Part shown: positions 3,177 through 61,546 of the stretch, in pieces
Position numbering within the stretch: the first letter of the stretch is position 1
Layout: each line of letters opens with the position of its first letter
IMG/VR virus record: IMGVR_UViG_3300045988_123515
Coordinates: 1 to 64,000 of that record
Reading direction: 5' to 3' (one strand)
DNA length: 64,000 bases
Source of the DNA: a virus
Made by a program: the position numbers and the translations under genes
Notes under the pieces: model-generated
The model's database searches: none
The model's input: the letters and a program-made list of their open reading frames with translations, nothing else
What the model was told of the DNA's origin: nothing

Positions 3177-3189
3177 TGATTCCACTCCC
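3177..3189. repeat. left arm of 13-bp perfect inverted repeat bracketing the serine recombinase gene
   Basis: TGATTCCACTCCC is the exact reverse complement of GGGAGTGGAATCA at 4930-4942. Confidence 0.8.
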
Positions 3190-3210: not shown

Positions 3211-4920
3211 ATGAATATTTATTACGCTAGGGAACAATTAAGGAATTGCTCAATTTACGATCTAAAAATGAATGTGGCTTATTATGCCAGGGTTTCTACT
3301 GAAAAAATAGAACAGCAGGTTTCAATCAAACACCAGGAAGAACATTTTGAAGAATTGATTCGTAATAATCATCAATGGTTTTTGGCCGGAGCCTACATTG
3401 ACGATGGTATTTCAGGAATCCATACGGAAAAGCGAGAAGAGTTTCAACGGATGCTTCGAGATGCTAAGCTAGGTAAAATCGACATGATAATCACGAAAGA
3501 GATATCAAGATTTGCCAGAAACACTCTTGATAGTATTCAGTACACCAGGGAATTGTTGTCTTATGGTGTATGTGTATGGTTCCAAAATGACGGAATTAAT
3601 ACTATTGACGAAGATAGCGAACTCAGATTGACAATTATGGCTGGAGTGGCACAGGATGAAATCAGAAAGCTATCCTCAAGAATAAAATTCGGTCATGCGC
3701 AGTCAATCAAAAATGGTGTTGTACTTGGACACCGGATGTACGGATACTCAAACGATAAGGGGAAACTTTCTATTGTTCCAGAGGAAGCTGATATGGTGAG
3801 AATGATATTCCGTGATTATGCTTCCGGGATAACAACTCCACAGATTGAAAAAAAGCTGTGGGATATGGGGTATCGAAGCTTAAAAGGCAAAAAGATAGAC
3901 CGAAACGTTATTAAAAGCATCATCAAAAATCCAAAGTACAAAGGTTATTTTTGCGGCGGAAAGGTCAAAATTGTTGACATGTTTACCAAAAAGCAAGAAT
4001 TTTTACCTCAATCCGAATGGGTCATGTTTAAAGATGATGGATCCAGAGTGCCACAGATTATTGATGAGAGAACCTGGGAAAAGGCAAACACCTACATGCG
4101 AGAGCGTGGCGATGCAATAAGATCCAGAAAAACATCTTTTAAGCAGGAGAATATATTTACTGGGAAATTAATATGTGCCAATGATGGAGCGCATTACTGG
4201 CTGAAACGTCATTGTATTCACAAAAAAGAAGATGCTAGGTGGGTGTGTAGCCACAAAATAAGGAATGGAGCAAATTCCTGCAATTCTTTTGGCCTGTCAG
4301 AAGCGGAATTGCAAGTAATTATTGCAAATCTGATAAACAAGTCAATTGAAAATATAGACCAGATTCTCCAAAAATATTTTGAAATTCTGAAATCCATTAT
4401 AGACAATCGACCCGATAATCTGGATGAAATAAAACGGCTCGAAAGGCAAATTGACACGTTGAAACTAAAGCGTGAAAAAATACTTGAGTACAATTTGAGT
4501 GGAGACATATCTGATGGTGAATTTGTTTCCAGGAACAAAGAGTATGTAAATCAAATCAAGGAAACCGAAAAGCGTATTTTTGATTTGCAAAATGCCAAGG
4601 AACCAGAGCCGATTGACAATCAGATTGATGCTATAAAAAAGCAGTTGGAAAAGTTCAAAGGCATTGTTCCTGACGATGTAAACAGGTTGGTTGTCGATGA
4701 ACTTTTCGATAAAATTTTGGTTGAGCCGTTGGATGGATCATGCCTCTTGTCGTTTTATTTGAAAGACGGAAGCGTTGAAAAATGGGGGTTTCCCTTGCGT
4801 TGTTCCGATAGTATGAAATTAAATATATTCCCAGAACAACACACGATATTTAGTAGAAATAATTGCATTAAGACACAAGATGTTGTATTGTATAATTATA
4901 CGTACAAATTAGCACTGTAA
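3211..4920 (+). CDS. large serine recombinase (integrase-type)
   Basis: The N-terminal resolvase domain is present (YARVSTEKIEQQ.. with the catalytic Ser, DDGISG, SRFARN). It is followed by a recombinase domain, a Cys cluster (CANDG..C..C..C) and a coiled coil. Length 569 aa. Confidence 0.9.
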   Translation: MNIYYAREQLRNCSIYDLKMNVAYYARVSTEKIEQQVSIKHQEEHFEELIRNNHQWFLAGAYIDDGISGIHTEKREEFQRMLRDAKLGKIDMIITKEISRFARNTLDSIQYTRELLSYGVCVWFQNDGINTIDEDSELRLTIMAGVAQDEIRKLSSRIKFGHAQSIKNGVVLGHRMYGYSNDKGKLSIVPEEADMVRMIFRDYASGITTPQIEKKLWDMGYRSLKGKKIDRNVIKSIIKNPKYKGYFCGGKVKIVDMFTKKQEFLPQSEWVMFKDDGSRVPQIIDERTWEKANTYMRERGDAIRSRKTSFKQENIFTGKLICANDGAHYWLKRHCIHKKEDARWVCSHKIRNGANSCNSFGLSEAELQVIIANLINKSIENIDQILQKYFEILKSIIDNRPDNLDEIKRLERQIDTLKLKREKILEYNLSGDISDGEFVSRNKEYVNQIKETEKRIFDLQNAKEPEPIDNQIDAIKKQLEKFKGIVPDDVNRLVVDELFDKILVEPLDGSCLLSFYLKDGSVEKWGFPLRCSDSMKLNIFPEQHTIFSRNNCIKTQDVVLYNYTYKLAL

Positions 4921-4929
4921 ATGAATTTT

Positions 4930-4942
4930 GGGAGTGGAATCA
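4930..4942. repeat. right arm of 13-bp inverted repeat
   Basis: GGGAGTGGAATCA. It also serves as the RBS region of the DUF4417 gene. Confidence 0.8.
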
Positions 4943-5593: not shown

Positions 5594-5739
5594 ATGGGAA
5601 CAACAACTGACAATTATCAGAGGAAGAAGAAACTCTCAAAGTCACAGATTGAGCGAACAGAGCGATTAATGAAATCTTCTCAGAGGAGAAGATACGGAAC
5701 CAGGAAGAAAGATGGAATTAATAAATTGTAAATTTTCAC

Positions 5740-43472: not shown

Positions 43473-44549
43473 ATGAGAAAAGAACAGTCTATTTCCGAAA
43501 AAAGAGAACGAGATTTCACGGGTGTTTTTATACCTTCACGATTATATCTTACGAATAAATTCAGCCCTAGAGAAAAATTTTTATTAGTAGAAATATATAG
43601 TCTTCGCAAGAAAGATAAAAATGGAGATTGTTTTGCAAGTAATCGGCATTTCGCGGATTTTATTGGTGTATCTGAGCGTACTGTCCAGTCAATGCTTAAT
43701 GGATTAAAAACAGAGGGATATGTAGAAGCATGGTATGAATATGAAAAAGAGAACCCGAAAGTTATTCATTGTAGACACCTTGTTTTGACAGAAAAATTTT
43801 ATGAAGAATTTATTAATGAACATGAGATAAAACAATCTTCTGAACAAGGTGAGAAAAAACACATGGGGGACGGTGAGGAAAAACGCACCTCCCGTGGTGA
43901 GGAAATCTGCATGTATAAGTATAACAAGAGAATAAGTATAACAGAAGAAAAGAATACAGATAAAAACTGTATTTTATCAAATACAGAAAAAGAGACTTTA
44001 CCAAGTGCTGGTAAAGACAATCAGACTTCTGCTCCTAATAATTATAATAAATTAAATATATATAATATACCCCCTAGAACAAAGGAGCAGAAAGCCAACC
44101 GTTATAATACCAGGAACCAATCATCCCTCTTTGATTATAAAGACGAGGATGTTGAGAATTTGGTAACCGAGATATACGAAAGTATTTACGGAGCCAAGGA
44201 GAATATTTTTGAAGACCACGACATTTGCCTGTCCATATTTTTGATTACAGAGTTTTTTAAGAAATATCAAAAGTACCGTGAAGAGAAACATCCGATGGTT
44301 ACGCAAAATCAAGCAGAAAATATTCTGAAAATGATTCGTAACCCAGATACAGACATGGCGAAAGATGATTTGGTGGACGATAAAGAAGAACCGCTGGTTT
44401 ATCTTGAAATGATGGAAGAACACTTTAAAACCAAGTGGGGGAAGAAAAATGGTGGTGATTTCAATTATCGTATTATGCTGTTTTTTAAGGATACCACGCA
44501 GAACCTGTTGTACCAAAGAGTGAAACATAAAAGGGAGGACGCACTATGA
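43473..44549 (+). CDS. wHTH (HTH_36-type) replication-initiator-like protein
   Basis: FIPSRLYLTNKFSPREKFLLVEIYSL..CFASNRHFADFIGVSERTVQSMLNGLKTEGYVE. Confidence 0.55.
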   Translation: MRKEQSISEKRERDFTGVFIPSRLYLTNKFSPREKFLLVEIYSLRKKDKNGDCFASNRHFADFIGVSERTVQSMLNGLKTEGYVEAWYEYEKENPKVIHCRHLVLTEKFYEEFINEHEIKQSSEQGEKKHMGDGEEKRTSRGEEICMYKYNKRISITEEKNTDKNCILSNTEKETLPSAGKDNQTSAPNNYNKLNIYNIPPRTKEQKANRYNTRNQSSLFDYKDEDVENLVTEIYESIYGAKENIFEDHDICLSIFLITEFFKKYQKYREEKHPMVTQNQAENILKMIRNPDTDMAKDDLVDDKEEPLVYLEMMEEHFKTKWGKKNGGDFNYRIMLFFKDTTQNLLYQRVKHKREDAL

Positions 44550-46137: not shown

Positions 46138-46503
46138 ATGGCAGCAGAAATAATGTTGAAAGTAAATGGTGTAGCGGTTAGATGCCCGTCAAAATTTGAG
46201 TGGGGCTTGCAAGATGTATCTGCATCTGAATCAGGGCGAACCGATGATGCTTTGATGCATAAAAACAGAGTTGCACAAAAAAGGAAAATAAGTCTTGGGT
46301 GGAACGGTCTTGGATGGGCTGAAACATCCAAAGTATTACAAGTGTTTAATCCTGAATACATAAGCGTAACATATCCCGATATGTTGTCTGGAAAATACGA
46401 AACCAGAACATTTTATGTTGGAGATCGTTCAGCACCAGTCAAATGGTGGTGGATTGGGAATCAAAGAACTGAATCTGTTGAATTTGATATTATTGAAAGG
46501 TAG
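46138..46503 (+). CDS. distal tail protein-like (putative)
   Basis: Sits at the head of the tail-tip operon. 121 aa. Confidence 0.35.
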   Translation: MAAEIMLKVNGVAVRCPSKFEWGLQDVSASESGRTDDALMHKNRVAQKRKISLGWNGLGWAETSKVLQVFNPEYISVTYPDMLSGKYETRTFYVGDRSAPVKWWWIGNQRTESVEFDIIER

Positions 46504-46506
46504 AAA

Positions 46507-49344
46507 ATGAGAAGTATTTCAAGCGATTTTAAAAATGAGCAAGATTCCGGGAATAGAAATTATCTAAAGTATGCAGATGTAACACTAATTGATGGAACAG
46601 TATTTAATTTCACAAATAAGGAATTATGGCAAAATGGTCTGTCGTTTGAAAGTGATACATCCAATTCAGGGAGTTTTGACATCGGGTCTGCAATGATAAG
46701 TAAGCTTACTTTGCAAATTAACAATTTTGATGGGACGTACTCAAAATATGATTTTAACAACGCTAAAGTTGTGGCATATGTTGGATTGCAACTCACGGAT
46801 AGAATAGAAAAAATAAAAATCTGTACAGCCACAGTAACAGATGCACCATATCAGAACAATGTAATCCTGTCGCTTACGTGCGAAGATAACATGGCAAAAT
46901 TTGACCGTGATTATTCTGAAAGCAAACTGATATATCCGGCAACCAGATTGCAGATTGTTCAGGATATTTGCTCTGTTTGTGGTGTTTCTTTGCAAACAAC
47001 ATCTTTTGCAAATAGTGATTATATCGTTCCTGAACGTCCAGAGGATGAAAACCTTACGTGCAGACAAGTTTTAGCATGGGTGGCGCAGATTGGATGCCAG
47101 TGGGCTAAATGTGATGCAGATGGAAAACTTAATATTGGATGGTACAAAACAGAACCACTTGATTCTGACTATATCAGCATTGAGCATACTAATGGCTTTA
47201 CACCATATTTGGATGATGTTGTAATTACAGGGATCCAGGTTACTGAATACCTGAAATCAAATTCATCTGAGAAAAAAGCAAAATCATACCTATATGGAAA
47301 AACAGGATACGTGCTGAGCATCAGTGATAATAAATTAATTCCAGAGGGCACTGGCGAAACAGTAGCATCTATGATTGGCCAGAAATGTATTGGAATGTCT
47401 TTTAGACCGTTTACAGCCCAATGCTTGACAGATATATCACTGGAAGAGGGAGATCCGGTAAAAATCATATCCAGAGATGGAACAGAATACAAAAGTTATC
47501 TTACATCTGTTAGATTACAGCCTGGTACATTTGAGGACATATCTTGTGAAGCCAAAAGTCCGGCAAGGAACAGCCGAAAGCAATACTCGTTACTATCACA
47601 AGCAATGGTAGAAGCTAGGCAATCCGTACACCAGGAAAAGACAGCAAGAGAACTAGCAATTGAACAGCTTGGACAAAAAATAGAAGAATCATCTGGTGTG
47701 TATACAACTGTTGTAAAACCAGAAACAGGCGGTAATATCTATTATTTGCACAATAGACCCAAACTAGAAGATTCTGATATGGTGTGGAAAATGACCGCAG
47801 AAGCATGGGGAGTGTCTACTTCTAAAGATTCAGACGGTAATTTTATCTGGAATGCCGGAATGACAGTGGATGGAGATACCATTGTTCGTATTTTGACTGC
47901 AACCGGAGTAAATGCAGACTGGATTAACGCAGGTGAAATCCTTGTGAAGGACAATAACGGTAATACTATTTTCTCTGTCAATATGGACACAAAATCCGTA
48001 TATATTGATGGTTCTTCCGTGACTATCGGTGGGAAGCCTCTTGAGCAGACGTTATCCGAACTTAACAGCAAAATTTCTGACAGTTTGCCAATAGCAATGT
48101 CTTTAACCTGTGATTTTAAAGGGATTACAGTAGATGCAGATGGAAATTATGAAACATTTCCAGACGGGATTTCAACTTCCCCAATAGTGGTTTTAGGGGC
48201 ACAGGATATTACAGCAAATTGTGCTTATACAATCACAAAATCAGATTCAATTACTGGAACATGGAACAATGCTACAAGAACATACACGGTTACTGGATTG
48301 ACTGCTGATGATGGATGGGTGGATATCAGGGCAACATATCTGACCAATATTATTATCACAAAACGTTTTTCGGTATCTAAGGTGTACAGTGGGCAGAGCG
48401 GCGTAACATACGGATTAATGACTTCAAGCCCAATTATCAAAAAAACGTCACAATCAGAACTAACACCAACATATGTTGATTTTACGGCATATTACACAAT
48501 TGGAAAAGACATGACAAAATATTTTCTCAATGGCCGGTTTGTTATTGAAGAAGTATTGAATGATGATGGTGTATGGAGAACGGTATACACCAGTACACAG
48601 GATGAATCAGAAGTGCGCCGGTCGCTGTATACGGTTCTGACTACCAAGGATGGAAAAGTCCCTGTAACAAAAGACGGAAAATATGCGCTTGGATATTCCC
48701 GGAATGTTACCTCTATCAGATGCAGGTTCTATGCAGCAGGCGGTACAACTCAGCTTCTGGGAGAACAGACATGTGCTGTTGTAGCAGATGCAACCGCTCA
48801 GCTGTCACAGTCAGATATCGTTGAGATATTAAGTGATGGCGGTAGGTGGAACGGACTGTATTACATTGATGGCAAGTTGTATATTTCATTCAGTGCGATG
48901 CTTGGTGGGGCACTTACACTTGGTGGAGCTAATAACGGAAACGGTCTGTTAAGACTATTAGATGAAAATGGAGATACAATAGCTACATTGGATTCTTCAG
49001 GTGCAAGTTTTACAGGACAATTCGTAAATAGAAAAGGCAAAGAATGGATAAAAATTCTGGATTCTATCATAACATCAGGATATGACGAATATGTAGATGG
49101 TCGTATTGATCTATCAGCACAGTATGGGGATGGGACAAGAAAAGTAGTTTTGGAATCTCTGACAAGTGATCTTGTGCTGAAAAGCGCAAGTGGGAAAATT
49201 CTCACAGGCGATGGAAGGGCTCTGATTGGAACAGATGTTTCAGGAGTGTATATATCAGAAATAAGCTATATGGATGATGTTGAAACAGGAGAAAGAAGCA
49301 TAATTTTTACATTTAGTGATGGAACAGTAAAAACTCTTGCATAA
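46507..49344 (+). CDS. tail-associated (Tal-like) / baseplate hub protein
   Basis: 945 aa, positioned after the Dit-like gene. The N-terminus resembles the prophage tail endopeptidase family by eye. Confidence 0.6.
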   Translation: MRSISSDFKNEQDSGNRNYLKYADVTLIDGTVFNFTNKELWQNGLSFESDTSNSGSFDIGSAMISKLTLQINNFDGTYSKYDFNNAKVVAYVGLQLTDRIEKIKICTATVTDAPYQNNVILSLTCEDNMAKFDRDYSESKLIYPATRLQIVQDICSVCGVSLQTTSFANSDYIVPERPEDENLTCRQVLAWVAQIGCQWAKCDADGKLNIGWYKTEPLDSDYISIEHTNGFTPYLDDVVITGIQVTEYLKSNSSEKKAKSYLYGKTGYVLSISDNKLIPEGTGETVASMIGQKCIGMSFRPFTAQCLTDISLEEGDPVKIISRDGTEYKSYLTSVRLQPGTFEDISCEAKSPARNSRKQYSLLSQAMVEARQSVHQEKTARELAIEQLGQKIEESSGVYTTVVKPETGGNIYYLHNRPKLEDSDMVWKMTAEAWGVSTSKDSDGNFIWNAGMTVDGDTIVRILTATGVNADWINAGEILVKDNNGNTIFSVNMDTKSVYIDGSSVTIGGKPLEQTLSELNSKISDSLPIAMSLTCDFKGITVDADGNYETFPDGISTSPIVVLGAQDITANCAYTITKSDSITGTWNNATRTYTVTGLTADDGWVDIRATYLTNIIITKRFSVSKVYSGQSGVTYGLMTSSPIIKKTSQSELTPTYVDFTAYYTIGKDMTKYFLNGRFVIEEVLNDDGVWRTVYTSTQDESEVRRSLYTVLTTKDGKVPVTKDGKYALGYSRNVTSIRCRFYAAGGTTQLLGEQTCAVVADATAQLSQSDIVEILSDGGRWNGLYYIDGKLYISFSAMLGGALTLGGANNGNGLLRLLDENGDTIATLDSSGASFTGQFVNRKGKEWIKILDSIITSGYDEYVDGRIDLSAQYGDGTRKVVLESLTSDLVLKSASGKILTGDGRALIGTDVSGVYISEISYMDDVETGERSIIFTFSDGTVKTLA

Positions 49345-49367
49345 TTAATTAAAGGAGGCACAGAACA

Positions 49368-49868
49368 ATGGCAACAAGCTTTGAACCAATTAAATTTGCA
49401 AATTTGACAGAAAAGACAACCGCACCGTCTGATGCAGACATTATTGTGATCGAGGATTCCACGGCAACCAAGAAAGCAAAATGGAGCAACCTGATAAGCT
49501 GGATTAAAACCAAACTAAATATCGGGTCAGCTGATATTTCCAGTATTGGTGACGGAACAGTGACAGGAGCAATAAATACGCTAAACACGAAGATAGACCT
49601 AAAAGGAACTTATCGGGCAAATGTGCCTGCCGTTGTTGCAGGAAACTTTGTGGGATTTCCATTTATTTCAATTCCTAACGCCAATTTATATAATATTGAG
49701 ATCACGGAAATCGCTATATTCGGCGGTGCTGATAAACCACATTTCGGTTGGAATATCTCCAAAAGTAAATTAGGGATTGGAATTGAAACAAACAATTCTG
49801 ATGCTGCGTTCTATTTTGGTACAACGCATCCGAATTGTTTTTGGACATTAACAATTAAGATATCATAG
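49368..49868 (+). CDS. tail fibre / receptor-binding protein, current orientation (constant N-terminus + variable C-terminus V1)
   Basis: 166 aa, the last tail gene. The inverted repeat lies at codons 72-76 (..NTKI). Confidence 0.55.
   Translation: MATSFEPIKFANLTEKTTAPSDADIIVIEDSTATKKAKWSNLISWIKTKLNIGSADISSIGDGTVTGAINTLNTKIDLKGTYRANVPAVVAGNFVGFPFISIPNANLYNIEITEIAIFGGADKPHFGWNISKSKLGIGIETNNSDAAFYFGTTHPNCFWTLTIKIS
49583..49595. repeat. IR-left of invertible segment
   Basis: AAACACGAAGATA. Confidence 0.85.
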
Positions 49869-49870
49869 TG

Positions 49871-50170
49871 TTATTGAACCCCATATACAGTTATCTGCCG
49901 CCCAGAACCACCGATATATAATCCGACCTGTATGTCGCTATTATAACAAGCATAACATTTGATTGTATCGTACTCACTTAACATTGCAGTGCGGTTTGTA
50001 CTATTACAAGTTTTAAAAATGCTGATCGGATAGATCGCGGGTGGGAATTGAGACATATTTCCGTCATTGATGCAGAATATAATGTATCTGTACTGCGTTA
50101 ATGATGGAACATTAAAATTCATCCATGCGCCAGCAGTAGTTGTGGCAACTAACTGTACCATAGACGCATT
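49871..50170 (-). CDS. silent alternative fibre C-terminal cassette V2 (no own promoter/RBS expected)
   Basis: The frame is open right up to IR-right. After inversion it reads ..NTLNTKI-NASMVQLVATTTAGAWMNFNVPS.. in frame with the fibre N-terminus. Confidence 0.6.
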   Translation of the reverse strand, partial: NASMVQLVATTTAGAWMNFNVPSLTQYRYIIFCINDGNMSQFPPAIYPISIFKTCNSTNRTAMLSEYDTIKCYACYNSDIQVGLYIGGSGRQITVYGVQ

Positions 50171-50183
50171 TATCTTCGTGTTT
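50171..50183. repeat. IR-right of invertible segment
   Basis: TATCTTCGTGTTT, the exact reverse complement of 49583-49595. Confidence 0.85.
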
Positions 50184-50238
50184 TGTGAATTAACAAACCA
50201 CCTCCTACATTCTAAAATGTTTGTGGGAGGTGATCTTT

Positions 50239-51240
50239 ATGACAGACATACGAAACACAATAATTAATAACGTGCTACAGGCGGTACAGCCATTGCTAGA
50301 TAGTCAGCAATTACAGGCTGTACAGGACGCACTCTGCATCCAGCTTGGCAATTGTGAAGTGCAGGAAAGGCACACGGAAATAACTGTAACAGATAATACG
50401 CCAGATGCAATGCTGGCCAGATATGTTGCCACAAAACGGATAGAGGGCAAGGCGGAATCTACTATCAAACGGTATCGTGATATCTGTTATATGATGATAC
50501 ATACCATATGCAAGCCTTTGCATGAGATTACAACCTATGATCTCAGATTCTATTTGGCAACTTATAAAGAGCACAGAAAAGTAAGCAACTGCACACTGGA
50601 TGGAATGCGAAGATGTTTCGGCAGCTTCTTTTCATGGTTGTCTGCTGAGGGAATGATCGGAAGGAATCCATGTGCAGCGCTGACACAGATCAAGTACACA
50701 AAAATAATGAAAAAGCCGTACTCTGCCCCTGAAATGGAGCGCCTGAAACAGGCATGTACATCCATCAGAGATCTTGCATTGATAGATTTCCTGTACGCTT
50801 CCGGATGCAGGGTATCAGAGGTAGTGCGACTTAACAGGACAGATATTAATTTCCAGACGCAAGATGCAGTAGTTTTGGGCAAAGGAAACAAAGAGAGGAA
50901 AATCTATCTCACTCCTGTAGCACTTATGCATCTGCAAGATTATCTGAATACACGGACGGATACGGATCCGTGCCTATTTGCAAGCCTGAGAGCACCGCAT
51001 AAGCGATTGTCAAAAGCAGGGATTGAGAGAACGCTAAAGAAGCTTGGGGAGAGCGCTAAAGTTACAAACGTACATCCTCACAGGTACAGGAGGACACTGG
51101 CAACCAATCTGTTAGACCGGGGAGCCAACATACAAGATGTGGCATCAGTCCTTGGCCATGCCGATCTTAAGACTACTCAAGTATATTGCTATATCAGTCA
51201 GAGCAACGTGAGAGCATCGTACAATAGATATACTGCATAA
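50239..51240 (+). CDS. tyrosine recombinase (XerC/D-like), candidate invertase
   Basis: Catalytic pattern ASGCRVSEV (R), GKGNKER (K), HPHRYRRT (HxxR), LGH and VYCY (Y). ATG 50239 follows GGGAGGTGA. The RBS can pair with the upstream CACCTCC. Confidence 0.85.
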   Translation: MTDIRNTIINNVLQAVQPLLDSQQLQAVQDALCIQLGNCEVQERHTEITVTDNTPDAMLARYVATKRIEGKAESTIKRYRDICYMMIHTICKPLHEITTYDLRFYLATYKEHRKVSNCTLDGMRRCFGSFFSWLSAEGMIGRNPCAALTQIKYTKIMKKPYSAPEMERLKQACTSIRDLALIDFLYASGCRVSEVVRLNRTDINFQTQDAVVLGKGNKERKIYLTPVALMHLQDYLNTRTDTDPCLFASLRAPHKRLSKAGIERTLKKLGESAKVTNVHPHRYRRTLATNLLDRGANIQDVASVLGHADLKTTQVYCYISQSNVRASYNRYTA

Positions 51241-51346
51241 CATACAAATCCAATTTTTACTCTGGGGAGTGCTCCAGAGTTGTTGTTGTGCCTGAAAATA
51301 GAAAACGAATGTTGATGCAAGAACAACGAGAAAAGAGGTATCTAAC

Positions 51347-52768
51347 TTGGAAATAAAAGGAATTGATGTGTCAAGCTATCAAAAGAAACCAGACTGGAAG
51401 AAAGTGAAACAATCAGGTGTGAAATTTGCAATATTGCGGATTCATCAACGCTCAGGGATTGATGCTAGCTTTGAGCACAATTACAAAGGGTGCTGTGATA
51501 ATGGTATTCTGGTTGGTGGTTATAAACTAAGCTATGCAACCACTGTCGCAGAAGCTGAAAAAGAAGCCAATGAAACTTTGGCAGTATTAAAAGGACGAAA
51601 ACTTGATTTTCCTATCTTTTATGACCTGGAATGGGAAACACAAAGAAAATTTAGCAAGTCCAAACTTGAAGCAATTACTTTAGCATTTTTACGTAAAATC
51701 CATTCTGCCGGATACAGGGTGGGAATTTACAGTAACGTAGATTGGTTCAATAATTTGTTCACACCAGCAATGAGGGATTATGATTGCTGGATTGCAAGGT
51801 ATCCGGCAACTGATAATGGCAAAATCGTTGAACGCCTTAGACCAGCGCAAGGAATTGGCTGGCAGTATTCCAGTAAAGGAAAAGTCCCAGGAATTGATGG
51901 TAATGTTGATATGGATGTATTTTACAAAGACTACAGGGATACAGAAACGAAAGGGGATGTAAGTGAAATGACAAAGAAAGAAGCGATTAATAAAGTGTTG
52001 TCTGTCGCAAAAGCAGAGATCGGATATCTCGAAAAGAAAAGCAACAGTCAGCTTGACAGCAAGACTGCCAACGCCGGAAGTAGAAATTACACCAAATATT
52101 GGCGTGATGTAAAGCCGTCCTATCAGGGACAGCCTTGGTGTGCATGTTTTGTCTCATGGTGCTTTATGAAAGCATTTGAGCAAGATAAAGCAAAGAAATT
52201 ATTGAGACATTGGCCATATGTTTATTGTCCAACATTAGGGAACCTTTTTGTAAAGAATGCTAATCCGAAAGTTGGTGATATTGTCATTTTTTACCACGGT
52301 GGAAGATTTACTCATACTGGAATTGTAACATCGGTAAACGGTGACAAATTTTCAACAGTTGAGGGCAATACTTCCGGGGCATCAGGAATTATCCCGAATG
52401 GCGGTGGTGTCTGTGCAAAAAGCTATTTAAACAGCAAATTGCCGGGAACAAAATTCTGTACGCCGGATTGGAGTATTGTAGCCGATACATCTACGGATAA
52501 TTCAGGAAATACAGCGGCTACAAAAGAAGATTCTAAACCGTCTAAAACGCCTAAGTTTGTCGGTAAGGTTACTGCTAATTCCCTTAATGTCCGTACATGG
52601 GCAGGAACAGAAAACGCAAAGCTTAAAAGCTATCCTATGCTTGCAAAAGGGAATCTGATTGATGTATGCGATACAGTTAAATCCAAAGACGGGAATCCTT
52701 GGTACTACATCCGTATTGCCGGAAAGTATTTCGGATTTGTATCTGCAAAATATATTAAAAAAGCGTAA
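51347..52768 (+). CDS. endolysin: GH25 muramidase + CHAP + SH3 domains
   Basis: TTG start. GIDVSSYQKKPDWKKVK..FAILR indicates GH25. QPWCACFVSWCF..H.GIV indicates CHAP. The C-terminal NVRTWAGTE..NPWYYIRIAGKYFGFVSAKYI is SH3-like. Confidence 0.85.
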   Translation: MEIKGIDVSSYQKKPDWKKVKQSGVKFAILRIHQRSGIDASFEHNYKGCCDNGILVGGYKLSYATTVAEAEKEANETLAVLKGRKLDFPIFYDLEWETQRKFSKSKLEAITLAFLRKIHSAGYRVGIYSNVDWFNNLFTPAMRDYDCWIARYPATDNGKIVERLRPAQGIGWQYSSKGKVPGIDGNVDMDVFYKDYRDTETKGDVSEMTKKEAINKVLSVAKAEIGYLEKKSNSQLDSKTANAGSRNYTKYWRDVKPSYQGQPWCACFVSWCFMKAFEQDKAKKLLRHWPYVYCPTLGNLFVKNANPKVGDIVIFYHGGRFTHTGIVTSVNGDKFSTVEGNTSGASGIIPNGGGVCAKSYLNSKLPGTKFCTPDWSIVADTSTDNSGNTAATKEDSKPSKTPKFVGKVTANSLNVRTWAGTENAKLKSYPMLAKGNLIDVCDTVKSKDGNPWYYIRIAGKYFGFVSAKYIKKA

Positions 52769-52773
52769 AATTT

Positions 52774-52805
52774 AAGCCCCTTGGAGTTAATCCTTGGGGC
52801 TTTTT
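52774..52805 (+). terminator. intrinsic terminator
   Basis: AAGCCCC..GGGGCTT followed by T5. Confidence 0.6.
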
Positions 52806-52839
52806 GCCATGCCAAGTCTTAAAAAAGTTAAAATAATAG

Positions 52840-52894
52840 TTGACTTCTAAATGACTTCATAGTATATTATAAGTAAGAAGTCAATATGACTTCA
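52840..52894 (+). promoter_or_regulatory. promoter with GACTTC operator-like repeats
   Basis: TTGACT (52840-52845), 17 nt, TATATT (52863-52868). TTGACTTCT and AGAAGTCAA form an inverted pair, and ATGACTTCA occurs twice. Confidence 0.5.
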
Positions 52895-52911
52895 AGAAAG
52901 GGGAAGTGCTA

Positions 52912-53109
52912 ATGATGAGTATCAAAACATTTACGTTAAGACTGACAGAAGAACAACTTGATTTTGTCGGTGAGAAGGCAAAAGAAATGGGGGTGAGCAA
53001 AAACGATTATATTCGCAGATTAATTGATGGAGATATTCGTGCGGACAAAGAGGATAAAATTTTACAGGAAATTATCGAAATCAAGAATATGTTAAAAGCA
53101 AATAAATAA
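52912..53109 (+). CDS. ribbon-helix-helix repressor (Arc/Mnt-like)
   Basis: IKTFTLRLTEEQLDFVGEKAKEMGVSKNDYIRRLI. Confidence 0.6.
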   Translation: MMSIKTFTLRLTEEQLDFVGEKAKEMGVSKNDYIRRLIDGDIRADKEDKILQEIIEIKNMLKANK

Positions 53110-53230
53110 AAAAGGATTCCTGCACCCTGGAAAAGTCGGAACCCTTTAAGCACTCAACGCACCGAGGTGGTCGGTATTGTCATTATATCTCCCTTCGGTG
53201 CATTTGTAAACACTGAAAGGAGATTTTTTT

Positions 53231-54037
53231 ATGGCAGATTTAAAGGTTATCGAAAATGAATTAGTTCCTGTGTACGAGACAAGTACAGGAGAAAAAGTTG
53301 TGTATGGTTCAGAATTACATAAAGTATTAGAAGTAAAAAGCCGTTATCGTGAATGGATTGAAAGAAGATTCGCTGATATTGAAGCCACAGAGAATGAAGA
53401 TTTTCAAGCCGCCGAAATTTCGGCACCTTCTGGACAGACCAAGAAAGATCACATTATCAAACTTGACACCGCAAAAGAAATGGCAATGCTTGAGCGCAAC
53501 GACAAAGGGAAACAGGTTCGCAAGTATTTCATCCAAGTGGAAGAGAAATATAAACAGACAGCAATTAATATCAATCAGCTGTCCCCAGAATTGCAAATGT
53601 TCAATCAGATTTTTCAGCAAGTAGCTAAGACTGAACTGGAACAGAAAAAACTTGCGGAACGTGCCGACCAACAAGAGAAGAATATGAAAACCATCATTGA
53701 TACTTTCAAGGGGACGGATTCTGATGTTGGCACAGAAAAGTGGGTGAACAGATGTATTTCAAAGATTGCCGAGAGTGACGATTTCTCTTACTCGTTCGGA
53801 AATAAATACGCCGCCGCCAGAAATGAAAGCTATCGCAGACTGACAGACAGAGCTGGTTGCCGTTTAGATCAGCAACTTAGAAATGCGATTTCAAGAGCCG
53901 AGGAAAGAGGTTGCACTAAAGCACAGACCAGCCAGATTAACAAGTTGTCTGTGATTATGCAGAATAAGCGGTTGAAAGATATTTATGTTAGTGTGATTAA
54001 AGAAATGATGATTGCATACAGAGTAGAAATTGCATAA
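53231..54037 (+). CDS. antirepressor (AntA N-terminal domain + ORF6C-like C-terminal domain)
   Basis: SELHKVLEVKSRYREWIERRF..ENEDF..LDTAKEMAMLERNDKGKQVRKYFIQVEEKY. The C-terminus is paralogous to that of the 55532 product (RAGC.L...LRN....E.GCTK). Confidence 0.65.
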   Translation: MADLKVIENELVPVYETSTGEKVVYGSELHKVLEVKSRYREWIERRFADIEATENEDFQAAEISAPSGQTKKDHIIKLDTAKEMAMLERNDKGKQVRKYFIQVEEKYKQTAININQLSPELQMFNQIFQQVAKTELEQKKLAERADQQEKNMKTIIDTFKGTDSDVGTEKWVNRCISKIAESDDFSYSFGNKYAAARNESYRRLTDRAGCRLDQQLRNAISRAEERGCTKAQTSQINKLSVIMQNKRLKDIYVSVIKEMMIAYRVEIA

Positions 54038-54108
54038 TTTAAAAAAATATAGAAAAATATACATCCATGGGTCAACTGTTTTTTTCTTAAATTGGAGGGA
54101 TTTTCTAT

Positions 54109-54423
54109 ATGAACGAAATCACAATTAACACAGCAAATCAGACACCTATTGAAACAGCACTTGGTATTGATGAAGAGGGAATGACTACCGCTGGTACACT
54201 CTTTGATTTTCTCAGAATGGATAGAAGCAATTTCTCAAGATGGTTTAGAACAAATATTATCGGTAATGGTTTTGCCGAGGAAAATACCGACTATTTTCTG
54301 TTCGTCATCAATGACGAGCAAGCGTTTGGTTCTATTCCCCACAAGTCAAGCATATACTGTTATCATAAATCATTGATCGGGAGGAGAAGCATATGGATTA
54401 CAAAAAGGAAATTATGGAGATGA
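54109..54423 (+). CDS. AntA-like domain protein, possibly truncated
   Basis: TLFDFLRMDRSNFSRWFRTNIIGNGFAEENTDYF is AntA-like. The remainder is unrelated and low-quality. Confidence 0.35.
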   Translation: MNEITINTANQTPIETALGIDEEGMTTAGTLFDFLRMDRSNFSRWFRTNIIGNGFAEENTDYFLFVINDEQAFGSIPHKSSIYCYHKSLIGRRSIWITKRKLWR

Positions 54424-58812: not shown

Positions 58813-58982
58813 AATTAGTAGCAGAACTTCTTGTATTTACTGGGATGTTAACCTTGATATTCTTCGGATTATGGTTTTTCACAGCCAAGGATTTGTTGGA
58901 AATATTTGTATTATCCAGTTTCGGGGCATTCTTTGTAGCAATCCCTGTAATGATATATTTGGAGGAAAAATTAAATGGGTGA
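58809..58982 (+). CDS. small two-TM protein (57 aa)
   Basis: ATGA overlap with the upstream gene. Translates to MKLVAELLVFTGMLTLIFFGLWFF..SSFGAFFVAIPVMIY. The track ORF extends to 58749. Confidence 0.45.
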   Translation: MKLVAELLVFTGMLTLIFFGLWFFTAKDLLEIFVLSSFGAFFVAIPVMIYLEEKLNG

Positions 58983-59598
58983 GAACAAAATAGTAATTTC
59001 AGGTGTTGCATCAAGCGTAGCCTTTCATCATGAAGCATTCGGTATTTATTATTATCAAACATCTGTTGCAGTAACAAGAAGAAGTGGGAATATTGATTAC
59101 CTTGACGTAGTTGCAAGTGATGAAACTTTCGGGGCTTATGATTACGAGGGAAAAAAAGTTGTGGTGCATGGTGCAATTCGCTCAAGGATTGAGAAGAAAC
59201 AGGCGAGAGAAGCATATGTTGCAGCGGACAATATAGAAATATTGGATGCCCCTGTTGCAGGCGGAGATTTAAACAAGGTTGAGGTAGAGGGATTCATTTG
59301 TAACAAAAACATTGAGGGAAAATATACGCCGGTAACAAGAAGATATATTCTCAATCTGTTCTTGGCAATTCACAGAAATAATAAGAGGAACGGAAGAGCA
59401 GATTATATTCCCTGCTGCATTTGGGGGGAAAACGCAAAAGAAATTGAGAAACAAGTTGAGCAAGGCTCAAAAATTAAAATAACAGGAATGCTCCTTTCCA
59501 GGGAGTTATACAAAAATGGCGAATTTGTAAGTGTATCTGAGATTTCAGTAAATTCAGTGGAGGTATTGGATGAAAACAATAGAGTTAAAAAGAATTGA
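58975..59598 (+). CDS. tandem OB-fold single-stranded DNA-binding protein
   Basis: Two SSB-like repeats: NKIVISGV..VAVTRRSGNIDYLDVVAS..GKKVVVHGAIRSR..ADNIEIL and NKVEVEGF..ADYIPCCIWGENA..GSKIKITGML..VNSVEVL. Confidence 0.55.
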   Translation: MGENKIVISGVASSVAFHHEAFGIYYYQTSVAVTRRSGNIDYLDVVASDETFGAYDYEGKKVVVHGAIRSRIEKKQAREAYVAADNIEILDAPVAGGDLNKVEVEGFICNKNIEGKYTPVTRRYILNLFLAIHRNNKRNGRADYIPCCIWGENAKEIEKQVEQGSKIKITGMLLSRELYKNGEFVSVSEISVNSVEVLDENNRVKKN

Positions 59599-61546
59599 GC
59601 TTGAGAACTATAAAAAGTATTCCAGCAAAACAGTTGAGTTATATAAAAAGACCAAGATTTCAGGACGCAATAAAGCAGGAAAATCCACGCTGATGGATGC
59701 GTATTTTGATACGCTAACAGGAAAATTAGCTGATGGTACATTGCCAAATGAAGTAAGAAAAAAAGACAATGGAGTTGAAGTTGATAATCCAGTAGTCCGT
59801 GAGATTACGCTTTCTGTTGACGGTCAGGAAATGGTTATTCGAAAAGAAATCAAAAAAGGCAAGAACAATAACACAACTTCCTATGAAATTGATGGTTTCA
59901 AAAGCAATAAAACGAAGTTTGAAGAGTTTTTAAAAGAGAATATTGCTGATCCGGATACGCTTCTGATGTGTAGTAATGCCCGGGCATTTATCAATGAAAT
60001 CTCAAAATCTACAGCTGATGCAAGAAAGACTTTATCAGATATTTCTGGATTTGATGAAAAGCAGATTGAAGGCTATGCAGATATTCAGAATATCACAAAA
60101 GGGCATCCGGTTGAGGAAGTTTTGAGGACATTGAGGGGTAATTTACGGAAGCAGGATAAAGCCGTTTCTAATAAGAAAGCAGTTATTAATAATGCAGAGG
60201 AAGAACTTTCAAAGATAAGTTCAGAATCTGTTGCAGATAAAGAATCCTTGCTGAAAGATAAAGCAATTATTGATGAAAAAGAAGCTAAAATCGCCGATTT
60301 ATCAAAAGCCTATGAAACAGCCCAGGGTGAAATCGAAAGTCTTAAAAAAGCAAGAAATGATTTTGAAAGAGCATCCGGTGAACAGCTTGGAAAGAAACAT
60401 TCTGAAATTTTAAACATCGTTTCTGATAGAAAAATCAAGTTACAGGCTGACCAGAACGATTTAAGAACTGCCAGAACAATCTTGTCCAACATGGAATCAG
60501 ATGATGATTTAAAAAATAACGTTACAGATTTACAGGCACAGTATAAAGCAGTTTTTTCATCTGCATGGAATGATTCTGCATTAAAAGCTATCGAAGTAGA
60601 AGAATTTAATGAAGCAGAAGCCGTATGCCCGACTTGTGGACAGAAGTTGCTCCCAGAACAGGTTGAAAAATTAAAGGTAACATTTGAAGAAAACAAGCAG
60701 AAGAGAATCACTGAACAGTTTGAAGCAAAAGCTAAATTCGAACAGGACAAGAAACTCACTCTTGAAGAAATTACCAAAAGAGGAAATGAAGCCGTTAAAC
60801 ACAGAAAACAATGTTCAGAAGATCGCACAAAGCTGGAATCTGATATTTTAGAGATTGAGAAGCGTATTGCAACTCTGACGGAAGAAATTCAGGCAAAAGA
60901 GAATGAATTGGAAGAAATTCCTACAAAAGTTGATTTATCTGCAAATGCTGAGTATCAGCAGATTCTGGCAGATATACAGAAGAAAGAAACTGAGCTTGCT
61001 GGGCTGAATAATTATTTTAAAGAGAGACAGGAAATCGCAAATAAGAAACTGGAACTTGCTAAAAAGATTGCGGAAATCGAAACCACGGAGAAACTTATAA
61101 AAAAGCAGAAAGCAGACAAGCAGCAGTCAATTGCCAGTATGAAAGAAGAATTAAAAACATTAGGGCAGCAGTCAGCTGATATTCAAGGACAGATTGACAA
61201 GGTGATGAATTTTTCAATTCTGAAAAACAAGTTACTTGCCGAAAAGATTAATCCTTATTTCAAGCATTTCCAGTTTAAATTCCTGGATTACACATCGGAT
61301 AATGAACCGATTGAAACTTGCCGGATGATCTGCAATGGCATTGATTATATGAATGGCTTGAACCACTCTGATCAGATTTTGTGCAACATTGATTTAGTGG
61401 CAGGATTGCAGGAATTGAACGGATTAAAACTTCCAATTTGGGTTGATGATGTGGAATCCGTGAACGAAGAAAGATTGCCGGAATTAGAACAGCAGGTTAT
61501 TTACTTGGAAGTATCAAAAGAAGAATTAAAAGTGGAGGAATTTTAA
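59570..61546 (+). CDS. SMC/SbcC/Rad50-like AAA ATPase
   Basis: N-terminal Walker A GRNKAGKST, a long coiled coil with a CPTCGQ hook-like motif, and a C-terminal LPIWVDDVES Walker B. Confidence 0.7.
   Translation: MKTIELKRIELENYKKYSSKTVELYKKTKISGRNKAGKSTLMDAYFDTLTGKLADGTLPNEVRKKDNGVEVDNPVVREITLSVDGQEMVIRKEIKKGKNNNTTSYEIDGFKSNKTKFEEFLKENIADPDTLLMCSNARAFINEISKSTADARKTLSDISGFDEKQIEGYADIQNITKGHPVEEVLRTLRGNLRKQDKAVSNKKAVINNAEEELSKISSESVADKESLLKDKAIIDEKEAKIADLSKAYETAQGEIESLKKARNDFERASGEQLGKKHSEILNIVSDRKIKLQADQNDLRTARTILSNMESDDDLKNNVTDLQAQYKAVFSSAWNDSALKAIEVEEFNEAEAVCPTCGQKLLPEQVEKLKVTFEENKQKRITEQFEAKAKFEQDKKLTLEEITKRGNEAVKHRKQCSEDRTKLESDILEIEKRIATLTEEIQAKENELEEIPTKVDLSANAEYQQILADIQKKETELAGLNNYFKERQEIANKKLELAKKIAEIETTEKLIKKQKADKQQSIASMKEELKTLGQQSADIQGQIDKVMNFSILKNKLLAEKINPYFKHFQFKFLDYTSDNEPIETCRMICNGIDYMNGLNHSDQILCNIDLVAGLQELNGLKLPIWVDDVESVNEERLPELEQQVIYLEVSKEELKVEEF

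Follow-up and report, generated by a model that had tools for sequence, protein, structure and literature searches.

We analyzed a 64,000-nucleotide (nt) window of viral DNA (positions 1 to 64,000 of IMG/VR record IMGVR_UViG_3300045988_123515; all coordinates refer to this window) and focused on a candidate invertible segment between its tail and lysis genes, which an initial annotation had described as a switch for the C terminus of a tail fiber. A DUF6711 (Dit-like) gene (46138 to 46503) precedes the gene for a 945-amino-acid (aa) tail protein (46507..49344, plus strand; phrog_6616 "tail protein," E = 8e-176), which ends just upstream of a putative small tail fiber gene (49368..49868, plus strand; 166 aa). 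The fiber gene is followed by a gene for a 333-aa tyrosine recombinase, the proposed invertase (50239..51240, plus strand), downstream of which lies a GH25/CHAP endolysin gene.

The constant 5' part of the fiber gene (49368..49582, plus strand) encodes approximately 72 residues ahead of a crossover core. This core, AAACACGAAGATA (49583 to 49595; codons N-T-K-I), belongs to the left candidate recombination site (s1; 49575..49595), and its exact reverse complement, TATCTTCGTGTTT, recurs at 50171 to 50183 as the core of the right, inverted site (s2; 50171..50191). No other exact copy of the 13-nt repeat is present in the 64-kb window. The repeat stretches to 21 nt with 18 matches (49575 to 49595 and 50171 to 50191), with 575 nt between its arms and an invertible segment of 601 bp. 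The s1 site encodes L-N-T-K-I and contains the same core as the sites at which related loci are rearranged (see below). Two coding cassettes converge within the segment, their stop codons separated by 2 nt: cassette a (49596..49868, plus strand; stop codon at 49866 to 49868), the C-terminal domain expressed in the present state, and cassette b (49871..50170, minus strand), a silent alternative C-terminal domain that is in frame, is open up to and through the s2 repeat, and is without a ribosome-binding site (RBS) of its own. Inversion of the segment yields ..TLNTKI|NASMVQLVATTTAGAWMNF.. in frame. The inverted repeat, the convergent cassettes, and the in-frame flip are thus as the initial annotation had described them.

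The claimed neighboring tyrosine recombinase was likewise borne out. Its gene starts with an ATG at 50239, 55 nt past the right repeat, and its product matches the Pfam families Phage_integrase (4.5e-33) and Phage_int_SAM_4. The catalytic residues R191, K218, H281, R284, H307, and Y316 are all present. No arm-binding domain was detectable (Pfam identified only Phage_integrase and the SAM-like core-binding domain), and the alignment to the nearest PDB chains (i.e., XerA, XerC-like, and XerD) spans residues 57 to 331. In NCBIfam, the best match was XerA-like (208.7 bits; cutoff, 220), followed by XerC (166; cutoff, 335) and XerD (158; cutoff, 330), and membership in these three dimer-resolvase equivalogs was rejected, all scores being under the cutoffs. 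The serine DNA invertase class (i.e., Gin, Cin, Hin, and Min) was also rejected: the adjacent enzyme is without a Resolvase domain, and the only serine recombinase of the window is encoded at 3211 to 4920. Homologs of the tyrosine recombinase carry the label "integrase" (phrog_1 and GenBank records).

Among GenBank phages, a tblastn search detected no recombinase more than 38% identical to that of the window. Terrisporobacter phage TPELB_ph1 (L060; PP197244; 3420 to 4415) and Clostridium phage phiCp-D (L061; MW478291; 3333 to 4310), both cultured phages of Clostridia, encode tyrosine recombinases with 31 to 33% identity. These genes, annotated as "integrase," likewise lie where the last tail gene meets the holin-endolysin genes, and TPELB_ph1 carries a second, larger "integrase." Convincing cassettes or sites were not found around either gene.

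We searched for natural variants of the segment; all evidence on isomers reported here comes from comparisons between assemblies rather than from within one culture. Querying metagenomes with the constant sequence that flanks s1 retrieved four contigs, in which the fiber gene is fused to cassette a, as in the window (L037), to cassette b (L034), or to a fourth cassette (L035 and L036). A close relative in the genome of Blautia ammoniilytica (L038) joins this fiber N terminus to a third cassette; it keeps cassettes a and b, with the amino acid sequences of the window, parked past a recombinase gene that is oriented opposite to the tail genes. When the hypothetical flipped product served as the query, a protein search recovered P0001 (175 aa; 97% identical over its full length; a cluster of 14 sequences), a called gene on contig L056 that joins the fiber N terminus to cassette b. 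L056 has the reduced, two-site layout of the window: tail protein, fiber, a parked 81-aa cassette (cassette a), recombinase, and GH25/CHAP endolysin. Window positions 49572 to 50183 are reversed in L056 at 99.2% identity, both flanks are collinear (left, 96.4%; right, 91.8%), and the inversion breakpoints fall in the two 13-nt cores. Another contig from a different run (L057) is 100% identical to window positions 46392 to 54135 (7,744 nt) and is in the window's state. In public proteins, at least 12 unrelated C termini follow the same N-terminal stretch of approximately 75 residues (>90% identical), with the junction at L-N-T-K/N. An exact search of IMG/VR for the flipped junction, a search of viral contigs with the fiber protein as the query, and a blastn search of GenBank phages with window positions 49000 to 51300 each returned no match.

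Between the window and L056, the segment at 49572 to 50183 is better conserved (99.2%) than its flanks (96.4% and 91.8%), which suggests that the cassettes move between phages or face stronger constraint.

With the recombinase as the query, we gathered 33 IMG/VR loci at 58 to 92% identity, and a genome scan added 17 Lachnospiraceae loci (Blautia ammoniilytica at 90%, then Parablautia, Acetatifactor, Roseburia, Petralouisia, and others). Approximately 45 related loci, some on viral contigs and others in Lachnospiraceae genomes, have in-frame cassettes flanking the recombinase gene, each at a conserved core. Nearly all of these loci carry four copies of one core, (T/A)AAACACGAA, around the recombinase gene, usually in the order s1(+) ... 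s2(-) [recombinase] s3(+) ... s4(-). Each copy opens in frame into an open reading frame (ORF) of 75 to 200 residues, and one copy per locus lies inside a longer gene that provides a constant N terminus of 51 to 921 residues. The core is AAACACGAA in most loci, AAACATGAA in L001, AAACACGGA in L032 and L045, and AAACACGGG in L033, L049, and L051. Uniformity within a locus and variability between loci would follow from a need for partner sites to match. In a logo built from 83 distinct sites, the consensus is ATWAATnnRCW-AAACACGAA-nAT, with a conserved arm solely on the side away from the cassette. In L001, the closest viral-contig relative of the recombinase (92%), all four sites (3277, 3934, 5098, and 5667) are changed to AAACATGAA, and the expressed cassette is fused to a 1,016-aa fiber-like protein, not to a 166-aa one. 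An array bigger than the usual four sites occurs in Acetatifactor muris (L049; 2957 to 8241), with six sites of core AAACACGGG and cassettes of up to 195 aa.

Several of these loci exist as isomers. L002 and L006 consist of four blocks that are 100% identical but arranged in the orders A-X-R-Y-B and A-Y'-R-X'-B, where R is the recombinase segment. The blocks overlap by 11 to 12 nt at the cores, and the fiber genes read ..GINALNTN|LSYLGSS.. (192 aa) and ..GINALNTN|MAGIICT.. (134 aa), respectively. Likewise, L004 and L028 align over 8,262 nt with 0 mismatches and differ only by the same exchange of A-X-R-Y-B for A-Y'-R-X'-B. Their sites (at approximately 2640, 3639, 3935, 5094, and 5612) fall into two classes, with AAACAGTAA at s1, s4, and an internal site and AAACACGAA at s2 and s3. 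The difference between these two isomers corresponds exactly to s1 x s4 plus s2 x s3, i.e., to recombination within each core class only. Tyrosine recombinases require spacer identity between partner sites, and the observed pattern fits this requirement. In loci of this type, segment R, with the recombinase gene, can also invert, and Y alone is inverted between L013 and L017.

In L002-type relatives, the outer flank of s4 provides the start of a short ORF (MKIISRINTN; 5612 to 5640 on the minus strand in L002 and 6389 to 6417 in L006) that reads into the resident cassette (91 aa in L002 and 149 aa in L006), with no strong RBS seen. This start may allow a cassette to be expressed from a second slot, without the fiber N terminus.

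The recombinase gene is framed by two predicted RNA hairpins. Upstream, CACCTCCTACA (50199 to 50209) pairs with TGTGGGAGGTG (50222 to 50232) in a hairpin (50199..50232, plus strand; free energy, -21.7 kcal/mol; z = -4.5) that buries the Shine-Dalgarno motif GGAGG at 50226 to 50230; the RBS sequestration that had been proposed is therefore supported as a predicted fold. When the sequence of each relative was folded singly, a hairpin covering the Shine-Dalgarno motif appeared in 14 of the 16 relatives folded, with differing stem sequences and sometimes with G-U pairs. RNAalifold returned no consensus structure upstream of the recombinase gene because the sequences are too divergent to align. The hairpin probably keeps the level of the enzyme, and hence the switching rate, low through limited translation. 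A hairpin over the recombinase RBS was also observed in phiCp-D. On the 3' side, a terminator-like hairpin (51259..51280, plus strand) is kept in the alignment with the four-site relatives (A1), with compensating changes. Homology to these relatives stops approximately 20 nt past this hairpin (near 51300), before their third site, and on the basis of the same alignment sites s3 and s4 are absent from the window. A candidate degenerate remnant of s3 or s4 at 51299 to 51312 (GAAAACGAATG) was rejected, given that the alignment homology is already over there.

The two C-terminal cassettes show no significant sequence similarity to each other. A loose pattern that the initial annotation had perceived in both did not hold up (BLASTP E = 0.27; a profile comparison aligned residues 1 to 76 only). 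Structure prediction, suggested at the same time for both C termini, gave a confident result for one of them: in AlphaFold2 monomer models, residues 78 to 166 of variant a had predicted local distance difference test (pLDDT) values above 90, while variant b had a mean pLDDT of 62. The confident part of variant a is modeled as a small beta-sandwich with one helix, and the N terminus is poorly modeled. Its best Foldseek matches in BFVD were an uncharacterized siphovirus protein (E = 1e-6) and a "baseplate component" (E = 3e-5). At the sequence level, cassette a is detectably related to a cassette ending ..FGTLHPNRMWLVTYNV, which in L001 forms the tip of the 1,016-aa fiber-like protein.

Taken together, the exact inversion between the window and L056, the P0001 fusion, and the cassettes at a shared core in relatives support the reading of the locus as a programmed DNA inversion switch that swaps the tip of a small tail fiber, to which we assign a probability of roughly 80%. 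The anatomy of the locus, the class of the recombinase with its intact active site, the precise inversion between natural relatives, and the fusion proteins are direct observations. The adjacent recombinase is most likely the catalyst, and we infer that switching is ongoing in the window's strain. In the mechanism that we propose, the recombinase would pair the inverted sites s1, inside the fiber gene, and s2, 55 nt before its own start codon. Strand exchange within the common core AAACACGAA(GATA) would then invert the 575 bp between the sites. The fiber gene would retain its promoter, RBS, and first 75 or so codons and would trade its last 90 or so codons for the silent cassette on the opposite strand, such that a lysogen or a phage population could yield virions bearing one of two unrelated fiber tips. 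The variable domains would bind receptors and set host range, as suggested by gene context and by analogy. The hairpin over the recombinase RBS probably holds the enzyme and the rate of switching low. The window copy is a reduced two-site (i.e., binary) form of a family whose norm is four or more sites, with convergent cassette pairs on both sides of an itself invertible recombinase gene.

Several points weigh against this reading and give room to other explanations. The window contains 10 exact 13-mer inverted-repeat hits (7 separate repeats) at a spacing of up to 2 kb, and 100 dinucleotide shuffles of the window yielded a mean of 4.1 such hits and a maximum of 12. By itself, the 13-nt repeat does not exceed chance expectation; its significance is drawn from its position and from the comparative data. 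L056 is a relative (92 to 99% identical) and not the same clone, and the two orientations were observed in separate assemblies. The attribution of the reaction to the recombinase at 50239 to 51240, rather than to another enzyme, is indirect. Alternatively, the enzyme could be a phage integrase or a Xer-type dimer resolvase, and the repeat a coincidence or the fossil of an old rearrangement; the "integrase" label of the homologs (phrog_1 and GenBank), the resemblance to XerA, XerC, and XerD, and the chance frequency of the repeat speak for this view. We consider it very improbable, however, on account of the subthreshold XerA, XerC, and XerD scores, the location of the gene between tail and lysis genes and not at a genome end, the additional presence of a large serine recombinase, the in-frame cassettes at a conserved core in approximately 45 related loci, and the existence of identical contigs that differ solely by the shuffling of segments at the cores. 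Less far-fetched, although still unlikely, is a frozen remnant, i.e., a window copy that lost s3, s4, and their cassettes and no longer switches usefully in a family that otherwise inverts. The missing third and fourth sites and the end of four-site homology near 51300 are consistent with such a loss, but the recombinase has an intact ORF with its full catalytic set, and the two cores agree at all 13 nt. Moreover, L056 shares the truncated two-site layout in the opposite orientation, and thus at least one inversion post-dates the truncation.

A further set of reservations concerns the variable protein. The 166-aa protein has no match in Pfam, PHROGs, or NCBIfam, a Foldseek search of the PDB with the variant-a model found nothing significant (best E = 0.07), and the BFVD match to a "baseplate component" is modest. 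With neither a family match nor a significant fold in the PDB, the receptor-binding role rests on gene position, the L001 fusion, and analogy; together with the modest BFVD match, gene position and the 1,016-aa fusion also carry the candidate identification as a fiber. The inversion could accordingly be real and programmed and yet act on a decoration, immune-evasion, or nonvirion protein, for which the missing family and solved-structure matches and the generic beta-sandwich of the confidently modeled part leave scope. This is improbable to about the same degree as the frozen remnant: the gene follows a Dit-like gene and the 945-aa tail protein gene and precedes the lysis genes, the same type of cassette ends a 1,016-aa fiber-like protein in L001, structural searches matched best to baseplate or tail proteins of phages, and the characterized analogs (i.e., Mu, P1, p15B, and Rin) all act on receptor-binding proteins (PMC6109161).

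The initial annotation could assign this switch to no described system. We found its closest described counterpart in the Rin shufflon of Bifidobacterium breve and Bifidobacterium longum prophages, which was presented as the first tyrosine invertase to be encoded by a phage (Mavrich et al. 2018; PMC6109161) and was later also reported in Eggerthella lenta clade 1 prophages (PMC8778435). Rin comprises a constant part (Rc), variable cassettes (Rv), and 11-bp rix sites, TTCCCTAACCC (PMC6109161). We compared the two systems by the published description of Rin (PMC6109161). In both, the phage encodes an XerD-like tyrosine recombinase, devoid of an arm-binding domain, beside a receptor-binding protein gene (in the window, a putative one), and a constant N-terminal part is combined with promoterless, mutually dissimilar C-terminal cassettes. 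Each cassette starts at a short asymmetric repeat (the 11-bp rix in Rin), a copy of which lies inside the expressed gene, and a separate integrase is encoded elsewhere (in the window, the serine recombinase, a putative integrase). Inversion variants with breakpoints in the repeats are seen here between the window and L056, L004 and L028, and L002 and L006, and in Rin between prophages. The systems differ in host (Bacillota, i.e., Lachnospiraceae, here versus Actinomycetota), in their unrelated core sequences (AAACACGAA versus TTCCCTAACCC), in cassette arrangement (convergent pairs versus tandem cassettes on one side), and in the position of the recombinase gene (in most relatives, within the array and flanked by two sites; in Rin, at one end); the window copy is in addition binary, with two sites. 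In GenBank phages, tblastn returned no Bifidobacterium record at E <= 1e-20, and the Rin prophages are perhaps outside that collection.

The binary layout of the window most closely matches those of Mu and P1. As in the Mu G segment (Gin), the P1 C segment (Cin), and p15B (Min), the inverting segment carries alternative 3' ends of a fiber gene, the constant 5' part lies outside it, and an invertase gene is adjacent. The serine invertases of Mu, P1, and p15B need Fis and an enhancer, and Mu and P1 co-invert a fiber-assembly gene. No such gene was seen in the segment of the window. The enzymes of these systems are small serine invertases, in contrast to the tyrosine recombinase here (a contrast also drawn in PMC6109161). 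Other tyrosine recombinase systems are closer in enzyme class and more distant in target. In the R64/IncI shufflon, the tyrosine recombinase Rci acts at several short sites, each with a single conserved side, and swaps PilV C termini in frame. The one-sided conservation of the sites described here resembles that of the sfx sites of R64, but PilV is a pilus adhesin of a conjugative plasmid rather than a phage tail protein, rci lies outside its array, and the site sequences are unrelated. In the pneumococcal ivr (SpnD39III) hsdS shufflon, the gene for the tyrosine invertase PsrA/CreX lies between invertible target-recognition cassettes. This placement is shared with the four-site relatives, whereas the target of ivr is the specificity subunit of a restriction-modification system, its repeats are longer, and no phage structural gene is involved. 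Inversions by PsrA are the subject of PMC7096588, and a systematic survey of programmed inversions listed tail genes of phages as targets (PMC9881135).

Our literature search found no description of this Lachnospiraceae-phage shufflon family. The window switch appears to work like Rin; the strategy is known from Mu, P1, and Rin, and the Lachnospiraceae-phage family appears to be undescribed. A broader synthesis seems to us slightly favored over its negation: a widespread undescribed shufflon family of Lachnospiraceae phages, with the invertase gene inside the array between two sites and cassette pairs on both sides, would draw on a shared pool of at least 12 unrelated tips across fiber shafts with 51 to 921 constant residues, the central dinucleotide (CG versus GT) would split the sites of one locus into compatible sets, and a conserved RBS hairpin would set the switching rate.

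Phages of the Lachnospiraceae, a family of dominant human gut bacteria that includes Blautia, have scarcely been characterized. With a built-in switch, one prophage could release virions of differing specificity. Such a switch would affect the prediction of host ranges, the inference of phage-host networks from metagenomes, and strain tracking, the last because isomers assemble as different "strains." The "integrase" annotation would also cause a phage with such a gene to be scored as temperate, or as carrying two integrases, for the wrong reason. The family may further serve as a natural catalog of small (approximately 90-aa) exchangeable fiber tip domains at a fixed L-N-T-K/N seam, and the compact recombinase and its site of approximately 23 bp, together with the tip domains, have potential uses in phage engineering and in inversion-based switches for Gram-positive anaerobes. 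The mechanism itself is well known; the family that uses it occurs widely in an important, poorly studied group of gut phages and has unusually compact parts.

The window is phage-like throughout (1 to 64000), with a G+C content of 35 to 41% and no long internal repeats, and neither a host flank nor an att site was visible within its 64 kb. It encodes a replisome organizer (842 to 1771), AntA (53231 to 54037), SSB (58975 to 59598), and an AAA ATPase (59570 to 61546), and four tRNA genes (Gln-TTG, Met-CAT, Arg-CCT, and Cys-ACA) lie inside the phage region at 13526 to 16544. The large serine recombinase (3211 to 4920; 569 aa) combines Resolvase, Recombinase, and zinc-ribbon domains, the domain set of a large serine integrase, and is a putative integrase. 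Its ORF is almost exactly bracketed by a 13-nt exact inverted repeat, TGATTCCACTCCC (3177 to 3189) and GGGAGTGGAATCA (4930 to 4942), which may be meaningless given a chance expectation of approximately four such repeats per window. Upstream of the fiber locus lies a tape-measure ORF of 2,155 aa. Between this ORF and the distal tail genes lies a 358-aa ORF (43473 to 44549), an unusual location for a gene whose product has an HTH_36 domain and resembles replication initiators in its PHROG matches (phrog_270).

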